From IMG/VR virus record IMGVR_UViG_3300011115_000874, positions 1 to 64,000 of that record: a stretch of DNA of 64,000 bases; one strand, 5' to 3'. The notes beneath the pieces were generated by a model. The model was not told the origin of the DNA. It ran no database searches and saw only the letters and a list, made by a program, of their open reading frames with translations. Source of the stretch: a virus. Position 1 is the stretch's first letter; the number at the start of each line of letters is the position of its first letter. Below are positions 4,315 to 62,904 of the stretch, in pieces. Made by a program: the position numbers and the translations under genes.

Positions 4315-5415
4315 TTAAACAAGTACTATCTCTTTAATTACTTCTTTTTTAGCCATATAATTTAAATGATAAACTAAACAAGGTAGTTGTTGTGAGAGTA
4401 ACTCAGGACATACTTTAGTGAAGTGATTTAATAATGCTTCAAATGGTATATAAGAATTTCTACCAAAATAAAGACCATATTTTTTAGCCTGTATTGCTTT
4501 TTTAACTAAATTATAGTTTTTATTAGCACTAACTTTATGTAAGTCACCAAACATATTATATAAAGCTATAATATAGGCTTTTGATGCTTCAAACTCACAG
4601 TTAGCTATAATTTCTTTCGCTACCTCCCAGTTTTCTATATCAGTACTTCTTAACATTCCATATAAGTTTTGAAATATTTCAAAGTCAATAATTAATCCTT
4701 TATTAATATCCTCATTTACACTTGAGTCAAATACAACTTTTAAGTTATGTTTTTTAATATTGTCTAATAAATTAATATAAAATCCAAGTCCATCAAATGC
4801 TTTTTTAGAACCATGTGATCCTTCTAATATAATTCCTCTAACTATTGTAGATTTGTTTATGACATTTTTAAAATAAGGAATGTGAGTACATATACTATTA
4901 TACTCATCTATTGATACACAATAATGAGTAATTTTTTTCTTTCCTTTTTCAGTAATTGAATTCCAACGATTATTATGAGGATTAATATACTTTTTAAATC
5001 CACTATCTTTAGTTATAATATCTACTGGGAATATTAAATAGTCAGTTGTATAATTAATTTCATGATTTTTTGTATTCACATTCCATATTGAAATATTAAA
5101 ATAATGTCTTTCAATAAAATCTTTATTAAGTACTAATGTATCTAACTTATCAAGCTTACGAGCAGTAGTAATTTTTAGTTTATTTTCTTGAATGTAATTC
5201 TTTAATTTATAAGCTGGTAATTCAGATAATGGGGTAATATATGTTGTACTATTGTCTGTTAGTTTATTATCTTTTGATTCATCAAATAATTTTTTTATTC
5301 TAAGTTGATAGTCTTCAGGTATAATTCCTCCAACCATATTATAACTTGTATTAAACATTCTATTTCCTCTACCATCATGGCTGAGTGTTAAGCGGAATAT
5401 TGTTGCGTCTTTCAT
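4315..5415 (-). CDS. Hypothetical protein co-transcribed with the AAA ATPase
   Basis: 366 aa ORF starting 2 nt after the ATPase stop. Confidence 0.6.
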   Translation of the reverse strand: MKDATIFRLTLSHDGRGNRMFNTSYNMVGGIIPEDYQLRIKKLFDESKDNKLTDNSTTYITPLSELPAYKLKNYIQENKLKITTARKLDKLDTLVLNKDFIERHYFNISIWNVNTKNHEINYTTDYLIFPVDIITKDSGFKKYINPHNNRWNSITEKGKKKITHYCVSIDEYNSICTHIPYFKNVINKSTIVRGIILEGSHGSKKAFDGLGFYINLLDNIKKHNLKVVFDSSVNEDINKGLIIDFEIFQNLYGMLRSTDIENWEVAKEIIANCEFEASKAYIIALYNMFGDLHKVSANKNYNLVKKAIQAKKYGLYFGRNSYIPFEALLNHFTKVCPELLSQQLPCLVYHLNYMAKKEVIKEIVLV

Positions 5416-38520: not shown

Positions 38521-40383
38521 TTAAAAGGATACAACTTTACCTTTAATATCAACATTAGGGTATTTAACTTCAAATATCATTGGGTCTAAACTTGGATATA
38601 CAACATTATTTTGAGTAGCACCTGCTATGTCATAAGCATATTCTGAGTATCCTAATATTGCTCCAGTTTTATTAACTATAGCTACATTTTTAACTGTTTG
38701 AACTCCTTCTATTTTATCTAAAAGTAAATAAATATCTTTTAATATAATAGGTTCATTTATTTGCCAATTATTTAAATTAAAAAATTGTTTTAGTTGAGTA
38801 ATACAATTAAATATAACTTCATTACTATTATATTGAGGGTAGACAGTAATATTAAAATCTACACCTATATTAATAATAAATGCGTCTTTAATTTTAATAG
38901 AGTCATTTATTACTCTATTTTGTGAGATATATGTAGAAAGATTTTGTTTTAGCGCTGGTGATGCTTGGGTTAGATTCCCATTAACATCATAAGATAAAAC
39001 ATATAAATCTAAAACAGATGGAGTTTCTCCTGGGAGGAGAGATGATATTTTTTGAGTTTCAATATATGCTTTTGATATTGAGCCATAATCTGGGGGTAAA
39101 CTCATAGCCCTAACTAAATAATCATCTAATGTGACACTTCTTTGTTGGGATGTAAAACTAACTAGAGAATTTAATCTTATTTGTTCAATTGTATCTCCAG
39201 GTGAACCACCATTAGCTGCTGATGGATTATTTGTAGCTACAGAATTAAAAACATATTGTGCTAAAGTAGCGTCTAGTCCATTATTTACCTTAATATTATT
39301 TTTATTGGTTATAACATTTAATACACCAGAAGCTACATTAGATGTAATCCCACCACCAATTAAATACCTTACTGTTAAAGTAGTATTATTAGGAGCTATA
39401 CCATAAGTATCAGTGTATAAAAAGTTAGATGGAGAGAATGCTGTTGTTAATAATGATCTTTTATATGGTAAACCTAAACCTATATTATTAGGGTTAGGAG
39501 TAATTTCTTCATCTATATTTTGAGTATTAGTACCTGCTCCAAATTGGATTTGAAGTGTTGTTGGAGTCATAAATCTAGTTACAAATCTACGAGGTATTTT
39601 TTTAAGTTGAAGAAGAAATGGAACATCACTTTGATTAACTGAGAGGTTAGGATTGTTTATATTAGTATTTTTAATAGTATCATATACCATTTCTTGAGCT
39701 AAATATGGTACTTCATACCATTTATTTCCGTCACTATCAGTTATATCTAATATTTTAATTATATTAGAATCTTCTATTTCTATTGTTGGATATTTTTCTA
39801 CAGATCCAAAAGAGAATGTTGTTGTTTTAATTTCAGCTGATATAGCTTTTCTAGTTTTCTTTAAAAGGAAATAATCAATATTATTTCCAGTTGTTTGATA
39901 AATAGTTACAGTTGTAGGGTCTTGTGAACTAGAGAATGAAAAATCAACTGAGTCTTGCATCAAAAATGAAGTATTTTGAGTTAAAGATGAGTTAATTTGA
40001 GTGTTTTCAAGTAATTGAACAGCATAATTATAATCAGGAGTATAATTTGTTCCTGATAATATAGATGGGATTTGTTGGTATACATCAATATCAACTGTAG
40101 CTGCTCCAGTGACTTTTGGAGTATAACCTAACATATATGCTAATGAATATATATTATTTTGCTGTCTAGCATATTGGATAAAATTCTCTTGAATTTGATT
40201 ATCAAGATAAAAAGATAATACGTCACCAACATAAGCTGACATTTCAAGAAACATAGTACCAGGGGAACTAGGAGTAAAATTAGCGTAAGTTGAAGGGAAA
40301 TAAGTTTTAGCAAATTCAGTTAATGTATTTTTGAATTCACTAAAATCCTTATTAATGTATTTAATGTCAATATTTTCAGCCAT
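38521..40383 (-). CDS. Baseplate wedge subunit (T4 gp6 / P2 J-like)
   Basis: DFSEFK..L..YVGDVLSFYLD..QENF..A..LAYMLGY; QFGAG; GG..DTIEQIR; QRSVTLDDY. Confidence 0.88.
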   Translation of the reverse strand: MAENIDIKYINKDFSEFKNTLTEFAKTYFPSTYANFTPSSPGTMFLEMSAYVGDVLSFYLDNQIQENFIQYARQQNNIYSLAYMLGYTPKVTGAATVDIDVYQQIPSILSGTNYTPDYNYAVQLLENTQINSSLTQNTSFLMQDSVDFSFSSSQDPTTVTIYQTTGNNIDYFLLKKTRKAISAEIKTTTFSFGSVEKYPTIEIEDSNIIKILDITDSDGNKWYEVPYLAQEMVYDTIKNTNINNPNLSVNQSDVPFLLQLKKIPRRFVTRFMTPTTLQIQFGAGTNTQNIDEEITPNPNNIGLGLPYKRSLLTTAFSPSNFLYTDTYGIAPNNTTLTVRYLIGGGITSNVASGVLNVITNKNNIKVNNGLDATLAQYVFNSVATNNPSAANGGSPGDTIEQIRLNSLVSFTSQQRSVTLDDYLVRAMSLPPDYGSISKAYIETQKISSLLPGETPSVLDLYVLSYDVNGNLTQASPALKQNLSTYISQNRVINDSIKIKDAFIINIGVDFNITVYPQYNSNEVIFNCITQLKQFFNLNNWQINEPIILKDIYLLLDKIEGVQTVKNVAIVNKTGAILGYSEYAYDIAGATQNNVVYPSLDPMIFEVKYPNVDIKGKVVSF

Positions 40384-49557: not shown

Positions 49558-49845
49558 TTATAGTTGTTCGTCTGTATTAGTAGGTGGGGTATTGCCGTTA
49601 TTTGGCGTGTTATTCTTGGCTTGTTGTTTCATCTTAACAACGTTTTCTATAACAGTTAAACCTAAACCACCACCAGCAATTAACGCGATTGAATCGAACA
49701 TGAATTCGGGTGTGATGTGTTCTTCGTTCTTATAGGTAGCTATGTACGCTAGAGATATAACTACAGCTAATGCTAATAACGATGCGAAACGCTTACTTGA
49801 AGTATCTGAAGTGCCTGATAATAGGTCTTTAAGGAATTTTTTCAT
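49558..49845 (-). CDS. Putative holin
   Basis: SSKRF then two TM helices and a charged tail; late motif upstream. Confidence 0.6.
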   Translation of the reverse strand: MKKFLKDLLSGTSDTSSKRFASLLALAVVISLAYIATYKNEEHITPEFMFDSIALIAGGGLGLTVIENVVKMKQQAKNNTPNNGNTPPTNTDEQL

Positions 49846-49876
49846 AGTGTGTGTTTTATGATAAATATATAGTGAT

Positions 49877-57817: not shown

Positions 57818-57886
57818 GTTCGTGTTATTTAATTATGACTAAATATAACATCACTCTCACCAGAGGCCAAACCTAGGTACGGAAAA

Positions 57887-57903
57887 GGGCCCCAATGGGG
57901 CCC
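57887..57903 (-). terminator. Hairpin terminator
   Basis: GGGCCCC-AAT-GGGGCCC followed by TTTT on the minus strand. Confidence 0.75.
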
Positions 57904-57937
57904 ACATCCTATATAATTAAAAACACACACATGCTAC

Positions 57938-58456
57938 TTAACTGATCCTCTCTAGGTACATGTCCCCAAAGATATCATCTATCTCATCACTTATCGAATC
58001 TACATCCAAGCAAACCGCATCCTCGATTTCACTATTGACATTATTAGATAGTGTATTGTTGTCTAACTCCACCTCAATCACATTACTCCAGTTATTCAAC
58101 TCTAGTGTGACCAAGTCATCCGCGTTTAATTCCATATCAGTAACTGCTTTCTTAATTGATTCGATTACTCGTTCTGTCAACCTAGTGGCGAAGTCGATCA
58201 ACTCTGCTTTGGTAAGGTGAACATGTCCCGCGTACTTATCATCCTCTGTTACCATGTACTGGCCATCCACAACTCGGTCCTCTTTACTGAAACCAGCGCT
58301 ATCAAACTCAGGACCTTCGTCTTCCACTTCCACAGGTGACTCATCACATCCGCATCCACAAGCACCATCACTACAGATGGTTTCACCACACACTGCAATT
58401 TCAATTGCGCTAATCTTATCTTTTAACTCCATTAATTGTTCTAATACTGTCTTCAT
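57938..58456 (-). CDS. Highly acidic early protein, paralog of 62924-63268
   Basis: HLTKAELIDFATRL vs TFTKEELIEFTKTI; own promoter. Confidence 0.65.
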   Translation of the reverse strand: MKTVLEQLMELKDKISAIEIAVCGETICSDGACGCGCDESPVEVEDEGPEFDSAGFSKEDRVVDGQYMVTEDDKYAGHVHLTKAELIDFATRLTERVIESIKKAVTDMELNADDLVTLELNNWSNVIEVELDNNTLSNNVNSEIEDAVCLDVDSISDEIDDIFGDMYLERIS

Positions 58457-58518
58457 GTTATCTGTTTTTATTATTGATCTAAATATAACGTCCTAATTCC
58501 CCTAAGCCAAACCTAAGG

Positions 58519-58701
58519 TTATTTAAATCTGTATTTCTTTACCTTATAATCAGTTACTTCTTCATCCACCTCATCCTCCTCATCAACGTCCTTCTGATGA
58601 CTCATCACTCGGTGAACCGCTGTTTCCTCATCTTCAGCATCCACAAAATAAATTCGTTTAATTGTTTTCAAAACTGTTTCTTCTACCTTAAATGTCTTCA
58701 T
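58519..58701 (-). CDS. Small acidic early protein
   Basis: Start reassigned to MKTFKVEE. Confidence 0.65.
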   Translation of the reverse strand: MKTFKVEETVLKTIKRIYFVDAEDEETAVHRVMSHQKDVDEEDEVDEEVTDYKVKKYRFK

Positions 58702-58764
58702 ATGTTTATGTTTTTTAATTATGTCTGAATATAGCATCCCTGTCCCGTTAAGCCAAACAAATGG

Positions 58765-59034
58765 TTAGTTAAGGTAAAACCCAATCTCATGTATTTCATT
58801 CTTAGCGAATGATTTAGCAGAGTCTAGGAAGTGTAGGTGCAAGTGCAAGGCGTTTATGTCGTCCATGATCTCCCTAGTTGGTCTCATATCCAGGTACATC
58901 ATTGAGTTGTGCTCTAGTTCCTGTATCTGTGTTAACGCCTGGCTTATTGACTTATTAGCCATAGCCAATATCTCTAGGACTTGATGTGCCTGTAAGCGTT
59001 CTAATACTTCGTCTGTGTGTTTATTGTAGTCCAT
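58765..59034 (-). CDS. Hypothetical early protein
   Basis: Start reassigned to MDYNKH. Confidence 0.6.
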   Translation of the reverse strand: MDYNKHTDEVLERLQAHQVLEILAMANKSISQALTQIQELEHNSMMYLDMRPTREIMDDINALHLHLHFLDSAKSFAKNEIHEIGFYLN

Positions 59035-59044
59035 GTGTCTATAA

Positions 59045-59254
59045 TTATAGGTTATCAATAAATTCTTGTACTTCTTCAACCAAATTTGCATCATCAATTT
59101 CATATCCATCTTTACTACGTAAAATGAAATCAATACATTTACCATTACTAGAGTCAATAAACTCTTTATACACTAATACTCCTTCCTTTAGATGTTGAAT
59201 AGTGTAAGTGTTTTCAACTACTTGACCCTCAATTTCATGTTTTAATAATTCCAT
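59045..59254 (-). CDS. Hypothetical early protein
   Basis: 69 aa; own promoter. Confidence 0.65.
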   Translation of the reverse strand: MELLKHEIEGQVVENTYTIQHLKEGVLVYKEFIDSSNGKCIDFILRSKDGYEIDDANLVEEVQEFIDNL

Positions 59255-59329
59255 TGTGTTTATGTTTTTTAATTATGGTTAAATATAACATCAATTGTTC
59301 ACAAAGCCAAATAAGGGTGTAAGGGAGTT

Positions 59330-59578
59330 TTAAAATAGAAAATCCTCACCCTCTACAAACCCACTAACATCACCATACTCCCACTCAAATCTCCAAGTCC
59401 CATCTGGTCCTATATGACCAGAAATTAATTTACCATACTTTGAAGTACCATGACTTCGCCAAAATTCTCCTTTAGTAAATTGTCTTTCTCCTTCATGGTC
59501 AAGTAATTTATCTGTAGAACATAATGGTTTATCATACCAATACCACTTAAGTTTGTCAAAATCAATTTTGTTTTTCAT
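59330..59578 (-). CDS. Hypothetical early protein
   Basis: Start reassigned to MKNKIDF (alternative 59584). Confidence 0.65.
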   Translation of the reverse strand: MKNKIDFDKLKWYWYDKPLCSTDKLLDHEGERQFTKGEFWRSHGTSKYGKLISGHIGPDGTWRFEWEYGDVSGFVEGEDFLF

Positions 59579-59638
59579 ATTCATGTTTTTAATTATACCT
59601 GAATATAACATCCATGCTCCGCAGAGCCAAGCAAGGGG

Positions 59639-59869
59639 TTAAACCCCTTTAAAATCAAAATCAATACATCTACCTAACATCATACCATACCCATCATGGC
59701 CTTCTATAAAAATTATATTATTATCATTTAATATCTTTTTACATTTAACCCAATTCACTCTCCCATCAACCCTACAAATTCTAAATCTATCCTTATCATC
59801 CATTCTCATTATAAAAATTCCATCACCACACTTAACAAACATTCCTCTTAACATTTCTAATCTTTCCAT
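59639..59869 (-). CDS. Hypothetical early protein
   Basis: 76 aa; own promoter. Confidence 0.6.
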   Translation of the reverse strand: MERLEMLRGMFVKCGDGIFIMRMDDKDRFRICRVDGRVNWVKCKKILNDNNIIFIEGHDGYGMMLGRCIDFDFKGV

Positions 59870-59962
59870 AATATTACATTTTTTAATTATGGTTAAATAT
59901 AATAAATATTACCCACAAAGCCAAACAATGGTACATGGGTCTTTAAGGAAGGTACATGGAAA

Positions 59963-59991
59963 CAAGGTGGGACCCCGTTGGATCCCACTTG
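59963..59991 (-). terminator. Hairpin, likely terminator
   Basis: GTGGGA..TCCCAC stem with CAAG/CTTG extension. Confidence 0.6.
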
Positions 59992-60015
59992 TAAAAACAC
60001 ACACATGGCTGGGTA

Positions 60016-60225
60016 TTAACCCACTAGCTCGATAGTCTTCATACGACGACGAGACATATTGTACATAGCGTTCGCTACGTCTTGGTTCACCGAACGGTTA
60101 CCATTAATGATGTTTGAAACATGACTGGTAGAATAACCAGTTGCTTCTGCTAGGCGAGCAGTGTCACCTTGTCTTTGACGTGCATTGTAGAACGCCAATT
60201 TTGCTGTACGATTTAATTTACGCAT
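60016..60225 (-). CDS. Cro/C1-type helix-turn-helix protein
   Basis: GDTARLAEATGYSTSHVSNIINGNR. Confidence 0.8.
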   Translation of the reverse strand: MRKLNRTAKLAFYNARQRQGDTARLAEATGYSTSHVSNIINGNRSVNQDVANAMYNMSRRRMKTIELVG

Positions 60226-60292
60226 AACTTTAATTAATTATTTATTTATATCTCAATATACGATAGTACTAGTGATAGAGCAAGCTATCCTT

Positions 60293-61175: not shown

Positions 61176-61235
61176 ATATCTGTTTTTAATTATACCTGAA
61201 TATAACATCCCTGTCCCACTAGGCCAAACAAGAGG

Positions 61236-61463
61236 TTACACATTGTAAACCTCTTTTTTATTCACTGACCATATATCTCCATCCTTATCCATACAATGAA
61301 CCGTAGTGGGTCTTACCTTAACTATTTCTCCTACCCAATTTATTTCCCCAAAAAGACCATTTCGGATTAATTCAATTGTGGACCATTTAACTGATTCCCC
61401 TACCTTAAATGAACGTTTTGCTCTTGGTTTTTTAACTGCTGCTGTTTTGATAATCTTTGCCAT
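61236..61463 (-). CDS. Small SH3/KOW-like early protein
   Basis: Start reassigned to MAKIIK; FKVGESVKW..GEIVKV. Confidence 0.6.
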   Translation of the reverse strand: MAKIIKTAAVKKPRAKRSFKVGESVKWSTIELIRNGLFGEINWVGEIVKVRPTTVHCMDKDGDIWSVNKKEVYNV

Positions 61464-61532
61464 GTGTTTATATTTTTTAATTATGATTAAATATAACATC
61501 ATGTTCCCCAGAAGCCAAACATATCTTGACCC

Positions 61533-61673
61533 TCCTATCCGGATCTCCCTACCGGATCCACCTACCCGATAATCCTGCGGCCATAACCGGGCATTAGGCG
61601 GCCTTAGGCGGCCCTCAATGCAATACGTTACCCGATACCCCTAGACCGGGTTAGGCCGGGTCCTAGACCGGGT
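61533..61673. repeat. GC-rich cluster of short direct repeats
   Basis: CCGGATC x2, TACCCGATA x2, tandem TTAGGCGGCC x2 (61594-61613), TAGRCCGGGT x3 (61642-61673). Confidence 0.8.
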
Positions 61674-61688
61674 ATGGATTCTACGCAC

Positions 61689-61718
61689 GAGAAATGGGCA
61701 CGTTTCCGTACCCATCTC
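61689..61718 (-). terminator. Hairpin after the RadA-like gene
   Basis: GAGA-ATGGG-ACG-TTTC-CGT-CCCAT-CTC imperfect stem (GAAA loop on the minus strand). Confidence 0.6.
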
Positions 61719-61741
61719 CCTATAATTAAAAAACACACACT

Positions 61742-62545
61742 TTATTCCTCTTCGTCCGCCTCTGGCAAACTGTACTCTACTTTACTAAACCCAATTCTAT
61801 ATTTGATATACGATTCAGTATCACAATCTCTGTTTTTACTAAAATATACCTTTCTACTATCACTACCTTTAATTCTATCAATATGACACATTGCTTCGGT
61901 CATGTGTTTCAATCTGTTACTACCTGCAAAATCACCTGCTTTAGTTACTTGTTGAATGTTAATGAACGATGTGTACTTTTTTAATTTGTTACCACCTTTC
62001 TTAACAATACATTGTAAATTCAAAAACCATAACTCAGCAGCGCTTTCAGTTGTACGGTAAGTATCTTTATACATTTCAATTACCTCAGCAATACTATCAA
62101 TCGCAATCACATCATAACCTTGGTCGAACACATACTCCATTGTTTCCTTAACTGTCTCAGTGTAATTCTTCAAAAATAATGTCGGTACAACCTTAAAACC
62201 AGGCATACGTTTGCAATATTTGAAGTGACCAATTTCATCCATCTCACCGCTCACAAACAATACCTTTTTACCTCTCGCCGCTAACTTAGATAACATATCT
62301 AATACCACCGTACTCTTACCTGAACCTGGTCCGCCACATATAATCATGTTAACCGCAGGCATTAAACCTTTATCCGTTGATAAAATCGAATCCATCAACG
62401 TTCCAGTTGACATTGGGCGAAATACAGATTCGTTAAACGATAACTCAGAACCTTTAAATATTTGAACTGATTTTGGGTCGAACGCTACTGTCTCTTTAAC
62501 TTTTGGCTTGCGACCTCTTTTCTTTTGCATTACTAAATTTTTCAT
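61742..62545 (-). CDS. RadA/Sms-like RecA-fold ATPase, ATPase domain only
   Basis: GGPGSGKST, FVSGE, IAIDSI, QVTKAGDFAGSNRLKHM, KNR. Confidence 0.8.
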   Translation of the reverse strand: MKNLVMQKKRGRKPKVKETVAFDPKSVQIFKGSELSFNESVFRPMSTGTLMDSILSTDKGLMPAVNMIICGGPGSGKSTVVLDMLSKLAARGKKVLFVSGEMDEIGHFKYCKRMPGFKVVPTLFLKNYTETVKETMEYVFDQGYDVIAIDSIAEVIEMYKDTYRTTESAAELWFLNLQCIVKKGGNKLKKYTSFINIQQVTKAGDFAGSNRLKHMTEAMCHIDRIKGSDSRKVYFSKNRDCDTESYIKYRIGFSKVEYSLPEADEEE

Positions 62546-62610
62546 GTGTGTGTTTTTTATTATGAATTAAATATAACATCCCTTGTCCCGAAGGCCAAAC
62601 AAGTTGTGTA

Positions 62611-62882: not shown

Positions 62883-62904
62883 GAGGGCACCATTTTGTGC
62901 CCTC
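62883..62904 (-). terminator. Hairpin terminator
   Basis: GAGGGCAC-CATTTT-GTGCCCTC. Confidence 0.7.

Follow-up and report, generated by a model that had tools for sequence, protein, structure and literature searches.

Trailers complementary to early leaders at the ends of three early transcription units in an uncultured lake phage, a possible RNA brake on early translation

The 64,000-nucleotide (nt) window analysed here comprises positions 1 to 64,000 of the virus record IMGVR_UViG_3300011115_000874, the first 64 kb of the 160,798-bp genome (31.7% G+C) of an uncultured lake phage. Three genes on its minus strand, encoding a 172-amino-acid (aa) acidic protein, a 69-aa helix-turn-helix (HTH) protein and a 267-aa ATPase, are followed by a short G/U-rich trailer that lies between the stop codon and the terminator hairpin and is the reverse complement of the leader in front of the early genes. 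On the evidence of sequence comparison the trailers are real and selected. We see an even chance that they function as anti-leader elements in the 3′ untranslated region (3′UTR), which would pair with early leaders and mask the start regions in cis or in trans.

An earlier note on this DNA had described such trailers after the 172-aa and HTH genes together with a third copy, and all three were found again on the minus strand, each after a stop codon and ahead of a hairpin. The transcribed strand is laid out as stop codon, (CAU)GUGUGUGUUUUU(U), usually AAUUAUA(UA)GG, hairpin and U-tract. The trailers begin 1–11 nt past the stop codon, directly 5′ of the hairpin. The order of U-run and AATTATA given in the note holds for copies 1 and 3, but copy 2 lacks AATTATA and its hairpin stem starts directly after the U-run. 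The features are as follows.

Trailer 1 (T1), 57904–57937, minus strand: 3′UTR of the 172-aa acidic-protein gene; anti-leader core 57910–57933, RNA CAUGUGUGUGUUUUUAAUUAUAUA
Terminator 1, 57881–57903, minus strand: 7-bp all-GC stem, 3-nt loop, then UUUUCC
172-aa acidic protein, 57938–58456, minus strand: Cys cluster; no family found
Trailer 2 (T2), 59989–60015, minus strand: 3′UTR of the 69-aa HTH_3 gene; core 59993–60007, RNA CAUGUGUGUGUUUUU
Terminator 2, 59962–59992, minus strand: 13-bp interrupted stem (outer part ACAAG...CUUGU), then UUUCC
69-aa Xre-type HTH protein, 60016–60225, minus strand: HTH_3, 25 bits against a cut-off of 23
Trailer 3 (T3), 61721–61741, minus strand: 3′UTR of the 267-aa RadA/KaiC-like ATPase gene; RNA AGUGUGUGUUUUUUAAUUAUA
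Terminator 3, 61689–61720, minus strand: 14-bp stem, GAAA loop; −24.1 kcal/mol, z = −5.9
267-aa P-loop ATPase of RecA/KaiC/DnaB-C type, 61742–62545, minus strand: Pfam matches all below or at the cut-offs
ATPase leader plus AUG, 62543–62564, minus strand: CAUAAUAAAAAACACACACAUG; best predicted target of all three trailers

After the 172-aa gene (site 1) the minus strand reads TAA-GTAG-CATGTGTGTGTTTTTAATTATATAGGATGT-GGGCCCCATTGGGGCCC-TTTTCC, with the stop codon at 57938–57940 and the hairpin, spelled GGGCCCC ATT GGGGCCC, at 57887–57903. After the HTH gene (site 2) it reads TAA-TACCCAGC-CATGTGTGTGTTTTT-ACAAGTGGGATCCAACGGGGTCCCACCTTGT-TTCC, with the stop codon at 60016–60018 and a hairpin composed of ACAAGTGGGATCC, AACG and GGGTCCCACCTTGT; after the ATPase gene (site 3) it reads TAA-A-GTGTGTGTTTTTTAATTATAGGGAGA, followed by the hairpin and TTTCTC, with the stop codon at 61742–61744. 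The exact 12-mer AAAAACACACAC is present on the plus strand in only three copies in the whole genome (57919, 59993 and 61729), all of them in the same orientation, with a minus-strand stop codon on one side and a terminator hairpin on the other. The 12-mer is commoner than expected by chance: allowing at most one mismatch, the 12-mer was matched six times compared to 0.75 expected, and six matches were reached in none of 100 shuffles. The motif precedes three of the 17 stringent minus-strand terminator hairpins of the genome, which are those of the three sites. Plus-strand matches to AATTAAAAAC at 39243 and 51699 lie inside coding sequence and are not trailers. In predicted folds the last ~60 nt of each unit consist of a G/U stretch that is open or pairs weakly and, behind it, a strong hairpin at the very end. 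These results support the view that the trailers have the anatomy expected of a 3′UTR seed, an untranslated, mostly single-stranded and constrained gap between stop codon and terminator.

Nearly all genes of the window are carried by the minus strand, and at ~51–66 kb they form an array of small genes, each with its own promoter of the form TTGGCy-N17-TATATTyA and a short leader. We found 23 such early promoters and leaders, with the leader consensus yATAATTAAAAA(A)CA...ATG, which lacks a Shine-Dalgarno (SD) sequence. The note's statement that the trailers are the reverse complement of this leader was borne out, and the leader consensus is real. The promoters of the array fit TTG-N20-TAnnTTTR; their spacing and TAnnTTT box are those of what we take to be a Bacteroidota-type promoter. 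No close relative of this phage was found in nucleotide and protein searches of cultured phage records, and an Rfam search returned two tRNAs and nothing else. A second leader class (AAATAAAGGTTATG) has no inverted copies except in front of a genuine plus-strand gene at 42.6 kb.

The whole early 5′UTR, from UAUAAUU to AUG, has its complement in copies 1 and 3. UAUAAUU probably lies close to the transcription start, which is expected 5–7 nt past the TATATTyA box. The identity between trailer and leader does not go beyond this stretch, and no promoter box is copied. As the complementarity thus spans approximately the transcription start to the AUG and leaves out the promoter box, it points to a role of the trailer at the RNA level. 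The best match of all three trailers is the ATPase start region, with 15, 15 and 14 identical bases, respectively. T1 and T2 are identical to the ATPase sequence AAAAACACACACATG over 15 nt, start codon included, and T1 matches the ATPase leader plus AUG at 20 of 21 bases. T3 matches the ATPase leader perfectly over 14 nt, with five more bases beyond a bulge, and so forms a 14-bp perfect inverted repeat with the leader of its own gene. Among the early leaders (AC)4 occurs only in that of the ATPase. The leader of the HTH gene does not match the trailer that follows this gene, as had been noted before.

When the trailers were paired in silico with the 23 early leaders, the mean duplex energies were −13 to −17 kcal/mol, compared to −6 to −8 kcal/mol for shuffled trailers and −5 to −6 kcal/mol for leaders outside the early array. 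T1 (−24.5 kcal/mol) and T2 (−21.9 kcal/mol) paired best with the ATPase leader, which ranks as the top target in most relatives. In a duplex scan of the whole sense strand, the best hits of T1 were mostly leaders, an enrichment seen for T1 only. T1 shows good seed-target specificity, T2 and T3 a moderate one. The other early leaders are partial, A-U-rich matches to the trailers, and a near-perfect match exists only for the ATPase start region. The proposal in the note that RNAs from these 3′UTRs could silence a whole class of early mRNAs is partly supported, by the position, complementarity and constraint of the trailers; with the ATPase as the only near-perfect target, the class-wide silencing is an extrapolation. 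Outside the early array, the stretch 49830–49860 shows a gene with a late-type upstream motif (TATATATTTAT) and the leader AAAACACACACTATG, which is possibly a second target of the trailers.

Relatives of the ATPase gene were found in 19 viral contigs (55–100% identity), and searches by pattern and over whole records added more. At these three gene ends the trailers recur in ~30 instances among related contigs, a distant lineage included. In L001–L007 they follow an ATPase ending in ...YSLPxADxEE*, an HTH protein ending in ...RRMKTIELVG* and an acidic protein ending in ...FGDMYLERIS*; the acidic-gene trailer is also kept after orthologues that end in LSEMYSESIS*, and the ATPase trailer follows the orthologue down to 83% protein identity. 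The distant record G004 has the three trailers at the same gene ends, likewise oriented and placed just after a stop codon and directly ahead of a hairpin, and promoters of a different subtype (GGTCGTACATTTA). Pairwise identity at site 3 averages 0.875 for the G/U core and 0.877 for AAUUAUAGG / AATTATAGG, compared to 0.60 for third codon positions of the adjacent gene end and 0.61 for the hairpin. At site 2 the respective values for core, third codon positions and hairpin are 1.00, 0.91 and 0.75, and the core is 100% identical in eight distinct relatives. The hairpins turn over at all three sites: relatives have a different stem (GGGGCCGCTTGCGGCCCC) at the same place at site 1, an outer stem altered on both sides at site 2 (CAGAA/TTCTG, GCAAAG/CTTTGT) and at least seven different stems at site 3. 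Comparison of core, third-position and hairpin identities therefore indicates that selection acts on the primary sequence of the trailer, and in the hairpin only on the structure.

Not all relatives keep the trailer. It is lost in L013, and in L011 (IMGVR_UViG_3300016474_000704) the ATPase gene is separated from the trailer and its terminator by an additional gene (4805–5294), which has an upstream motif of the TATTTAT type. Because this gene was inserted after the ATPase gene, the trailer of L011 follows a different gene. As far as these records tell, the trailer is not indispensable. Metatranscriptome contigs that span both gene and trailer were also found, and gains and losses of cassettes are visible in them. 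Adapter remnants at contig ends gave inconsistent indications of the strand.

Folding of whole messages predicted panhandles between the 5′ and 3′ ends. In the full-length ATPase mRNA (877 nt), 17.2 of the 22 leader bases are paired with the trailer, with a probability near 1, and its minimum free energy fold contains 18 leader-trailer pairs. The acidic-gene mRNA has 18.7 expected leader-trailer pairs, and in a 1.7-kb transcript starting from the promoter at 59630 (P59630) 16.1 of the 17 leader bases are paired with the trailer. The HTH mRNA showed no leader-trailer panhandle in its fold (0.56 expected pairs). Predicted folds for L002, L005, L006, G001 and G004 likewise contain the ATPase panhandle, despite their changed leaders, and in L007 it is weaker. 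According to these predictions, pairing in cis is at least as likely as action in trans.

From the sequence of the trailers, their position, their conservation and the predicted pairing we infer that they may pair with leaders in cells, in cis or in trans, and thereby block translation or alter decay. The trailer, a run of G and U only, with AAUUAUA added at two sites, would be exposed ahead of the terminator hairpin and would complement the short, A/C-rich and SD-less early 5′UTR, almost perfectly so for the ATPase mRNA with its AUG. When transcription has reached the 3′ end, the trailer could pair with the leader of the same molecule, as a 5′–3′ panhandle, or with that of another molecule. 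Such pairing would cover the unstructured stretch on which ribosomes of Bacteroidota type have to land, and it may provide a double-stranded substrate for decay. Early protein synthesis, most of all that of the ATPase, would thereby be limited through negative feedback. Bacteroidia start translation without SD pairing, with leader structure tuning initiation (PMC6847099), and anti-ribosome-binding-site sequences hundreds of bases away have been shown to repress and destabilise mRNAs in vivo (PMC12697547).

Several observations weigh against this reading. In metatranscriptome runs from several studies the relatives are present as assembled contigs only and in small shares, which carry neither strand, ends nor levels. 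In a cross-lineage matrix of leader and trailer energies, native pairs were not preferred and no diagonal appeared. Because the lineages share a nearly identical leader consensus, covariation is not established; a single double change from A-U to C-G on both sides in G004 is anecdotal. The early-region terminators at 62902 and 65068 have no trailer and the complete 163-kb relative G001 retains only that of the ATPase, and the element is therefore not general. In the scan of the sense strand T2 and T3 had many non-leader sites of equal energy, chiefly through their G+C-rich flanks, and anti-leader 8-mers are not depleted elsewhere on that strand (108 observed versus 112 expected). Helices formed by the A-U-rich part of the trailer are weak. 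Finally, ribosome loading during transcription could prevent pairing in cis.

The position of the motif, which always abuts a terminator, would also fit an RNA motif that works without leader pairing, either as a G/U-rich site to which an RNA-binding protein of host or phage attaches, or as an element for stability or termination efficiency; the leader complementarity would then be incidental to how the motif arose. Within the motif the G/U run does not vary, AAUUAUA is absent from site 2 and there is no clear covariation with the leaders. However, 14 other terminators of the genome lack the motif, and a match of 15 nt, the complement of AUG included, together with a second block matching the 5′ end of the leader, is hard to gain and then keep as a by-product. 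We regard this explanation as unlikely, and as the least improbable of the alternatives. Slightly less probable is a double-stranded, operator-like AAAAACACACAC box in the DNA, with one copy near the ATPase promoter and three at gene ends, whose regulator might be the adjacent HTH protein. The same 12-mer is indeed found at the ATPase leader and in the three trailers, and the HTH gene lies inside the cluster, but the promoter of this gene has no copy and the motif lacks dyad symmetry. Moreover, a DNA site does not need transcription, yet the copies in several lineages all lie upstream of a hairpin and in one orientation.

Less probable again is a function of the plus-strand copy, as leader or promoter of antisense transcripts or of micro-open reading frames (micro-ORFs) that run into the upstream gene. 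Antisense promoters occur in other phages (PMC10914365), copies 1 and 3 read TATAATTAAAAA... with a TATAAT hexamer, and an ATG is present in two copies. Copy 2, on the other hand, has no TATAAT and copy 3 no ATG, and the promoter type of this phage, TTGGC-N17-TATATTyA, has two plus-strand matches genome-wide (27341 and 42621), neither of them near a trailer. The plus-strand mini-ORFs MLLN and MAGY of the note are present, but they drift between relatives (L002 and L004 read MNYLTDPL), which together with the promoter positions argues against the trailers being leaders of antisense mini-genes. Copy 3 resembles the end of the T7 promoter (TATAGGGAGA), but as the other copies do not, this likeness was given no weight. 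Least probable in our view is a neutral scar, in which inverted copies of the ATPase leader were left by recombination between cassettes. The region is a shuffling cassette array with gains and losses from strain to strain, and the gene inserted between ATPase gene and trailer in L011 would agree with such an origin, but the three orthologous sites are conserved across lineages and change less than synonymous sites, while the hairpins turn over. As a plus-strand function is unlikely, operator and scar fit poorly and an RNA element unrelated to leaders would not explain a complement that reaches from the 5′ end of the mRNA through the AUG, RNA pairing with the leaders is favoured.

Precedents for the proposed pairing exist in bacteria. 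In the icaR mRNA of Staphylococcus aureus and the hbs mRNA of Bacillus subtilis a short 3′UTR stretch complements the start region of the same message (14 nt in hbs, 14 nt in the phage ATPase), and as in the phage the predicted outcome is blocked initiation, altered decay or both (PMC7821165). A 3′UTR complementary to the start of its own mRNA is found for the ATPase and the acidic gene, but not for the HTH gene. Unlike icaR and hbs, the phage would mask an A/C-rich, SD-less leader instead of an SD sequence, and its anti-leader, known here from sequence and folding, recurs at three unit ends and fits the leaders of other genes. OppZ and CarZ of Vibrio cholerae autoregulate through 3′UTR seeds: a conserved seed just upstream of their own terminator is complementary to a start region within the same unit, which provides negative feedback (PMC7398697). 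Like these and CpxQ-type RNAs, the phage trailers have a conserved single-stranded seed directly upstream of an intrinsic terminator, which is predicted to complement the start regions of its targets; the OppZ and CarZ small RNAs differ in being released by RNase E and needing Hfq.

The PeSL cassettes of T4-type phages likewise combine a strong early promoter and stem-loop terminators that flank small orphan genes, with gain and loss between strains (PMC2839356, PMC4122927). The paper on PeSL describes promoter and stem-loop only and no complementarity (the word 'complementar' does not occur in it), and the promoters of our phage are of Bacteroidota type. The composite of early promoter and stem-loop around orphan genes is present here, as context of the trailers and not as the trailers themselves, whereas the sigma70-like −35/−10 promoters of T4-type phages are not. 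In T4, the protein RegA acts on the start regions of many early mRNAs and so represses them as a class; the proposed repressor of this phage, in contrast, would be an RNA carried on the early messages themselves. We consider it plausible from these comparisons that the trailers are a new variant of 5′/3′-UTR or 3′UTR-seed regulation in a phage of an SD-less host.

Trailer-type contexts are confined to this phage family and one or two possible cases, L066 and L069. In these unrelated viral contigs (L066 at ~6471, L069 at ~1630) CATGTGTGTGTTTT, a strong hairpin and a T-run follow a long ORF, and they are possibly independent modules of the trailer type. Otherwise the 14-mer outside the family is mostly a genuine leader on the other strand. 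In the viral contigs L058–L134 AAAACACACACATG is a common leader, with an ORF starting from its ATG in 58 of 111 hits, and start sites with CA-repeat leaders therefore seem widespread in these phages.

The array around the trailers showed further variable parts. Directly downstream of terminator 3 a G+C-rich non-coding stretch of ~170 nt (61520–61690) holds repeated CCGG-containing units (CCGGTCTAGG, CCGCCTAAGG/CCGCCTAATG and GGATCCGGTAGGGAGATCCGG). It is present in some relatives and absent from L004–L007, has a 12-nt indel in one metatranscriptome contig, and may represent an RNA or else a region resembling iterons. The non-coding segment 60300–60490, which separates tRNA-Met from the HTH promoter, holds a long hairpin (GAGGCATG...CATGCCTC). 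In RNA-library contigs of relatives 60421/60436–60574 is missing, and some strains therefore lack the tRNA-Met gene. A metatranscriptome contig of run X1 joins 61179 to 61490, so that this strain lacks the whole cassette of an 88-aa gene. In another contig the stop codon and trailer 3 are unchanged but a different gene end precedes them (loose end at 61745). The cassettes are still being shuffled. In run X1 the end of an RNA-library fragment is joined to adapter at 60242, 11 nt downstream of the TATATTGA box of the HTH gene, and may mark the HTH transcription start.

Post-transcriptional early shut-off in virulent phages is known for a few model phages, such as T4 with RegA, and to our knowledge not at all for phages of Bacteroidota. 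A broader idea, which we put forward as doubtful, is that phages of SD-less hosts carry a wobble-tolerant universal anti-leader at the 3′ ends of early units, in which G would pair with C or U, and U with A or G. The panhandle would then close the finished message or its neighbours and leave a short window for translation, an RNA-only timer of early shut-off that works without a protein repressor. With the bare, A-rich leaders of Bacteroidota hosts, any complementary RNA should be a potent brake. If the proposed pairing is true, an anti-leader on early messages would be a simple and portable feedback device, and nature would here provide a case of the long-range masking of start sites that until now was shown mainly by mutagenesis.

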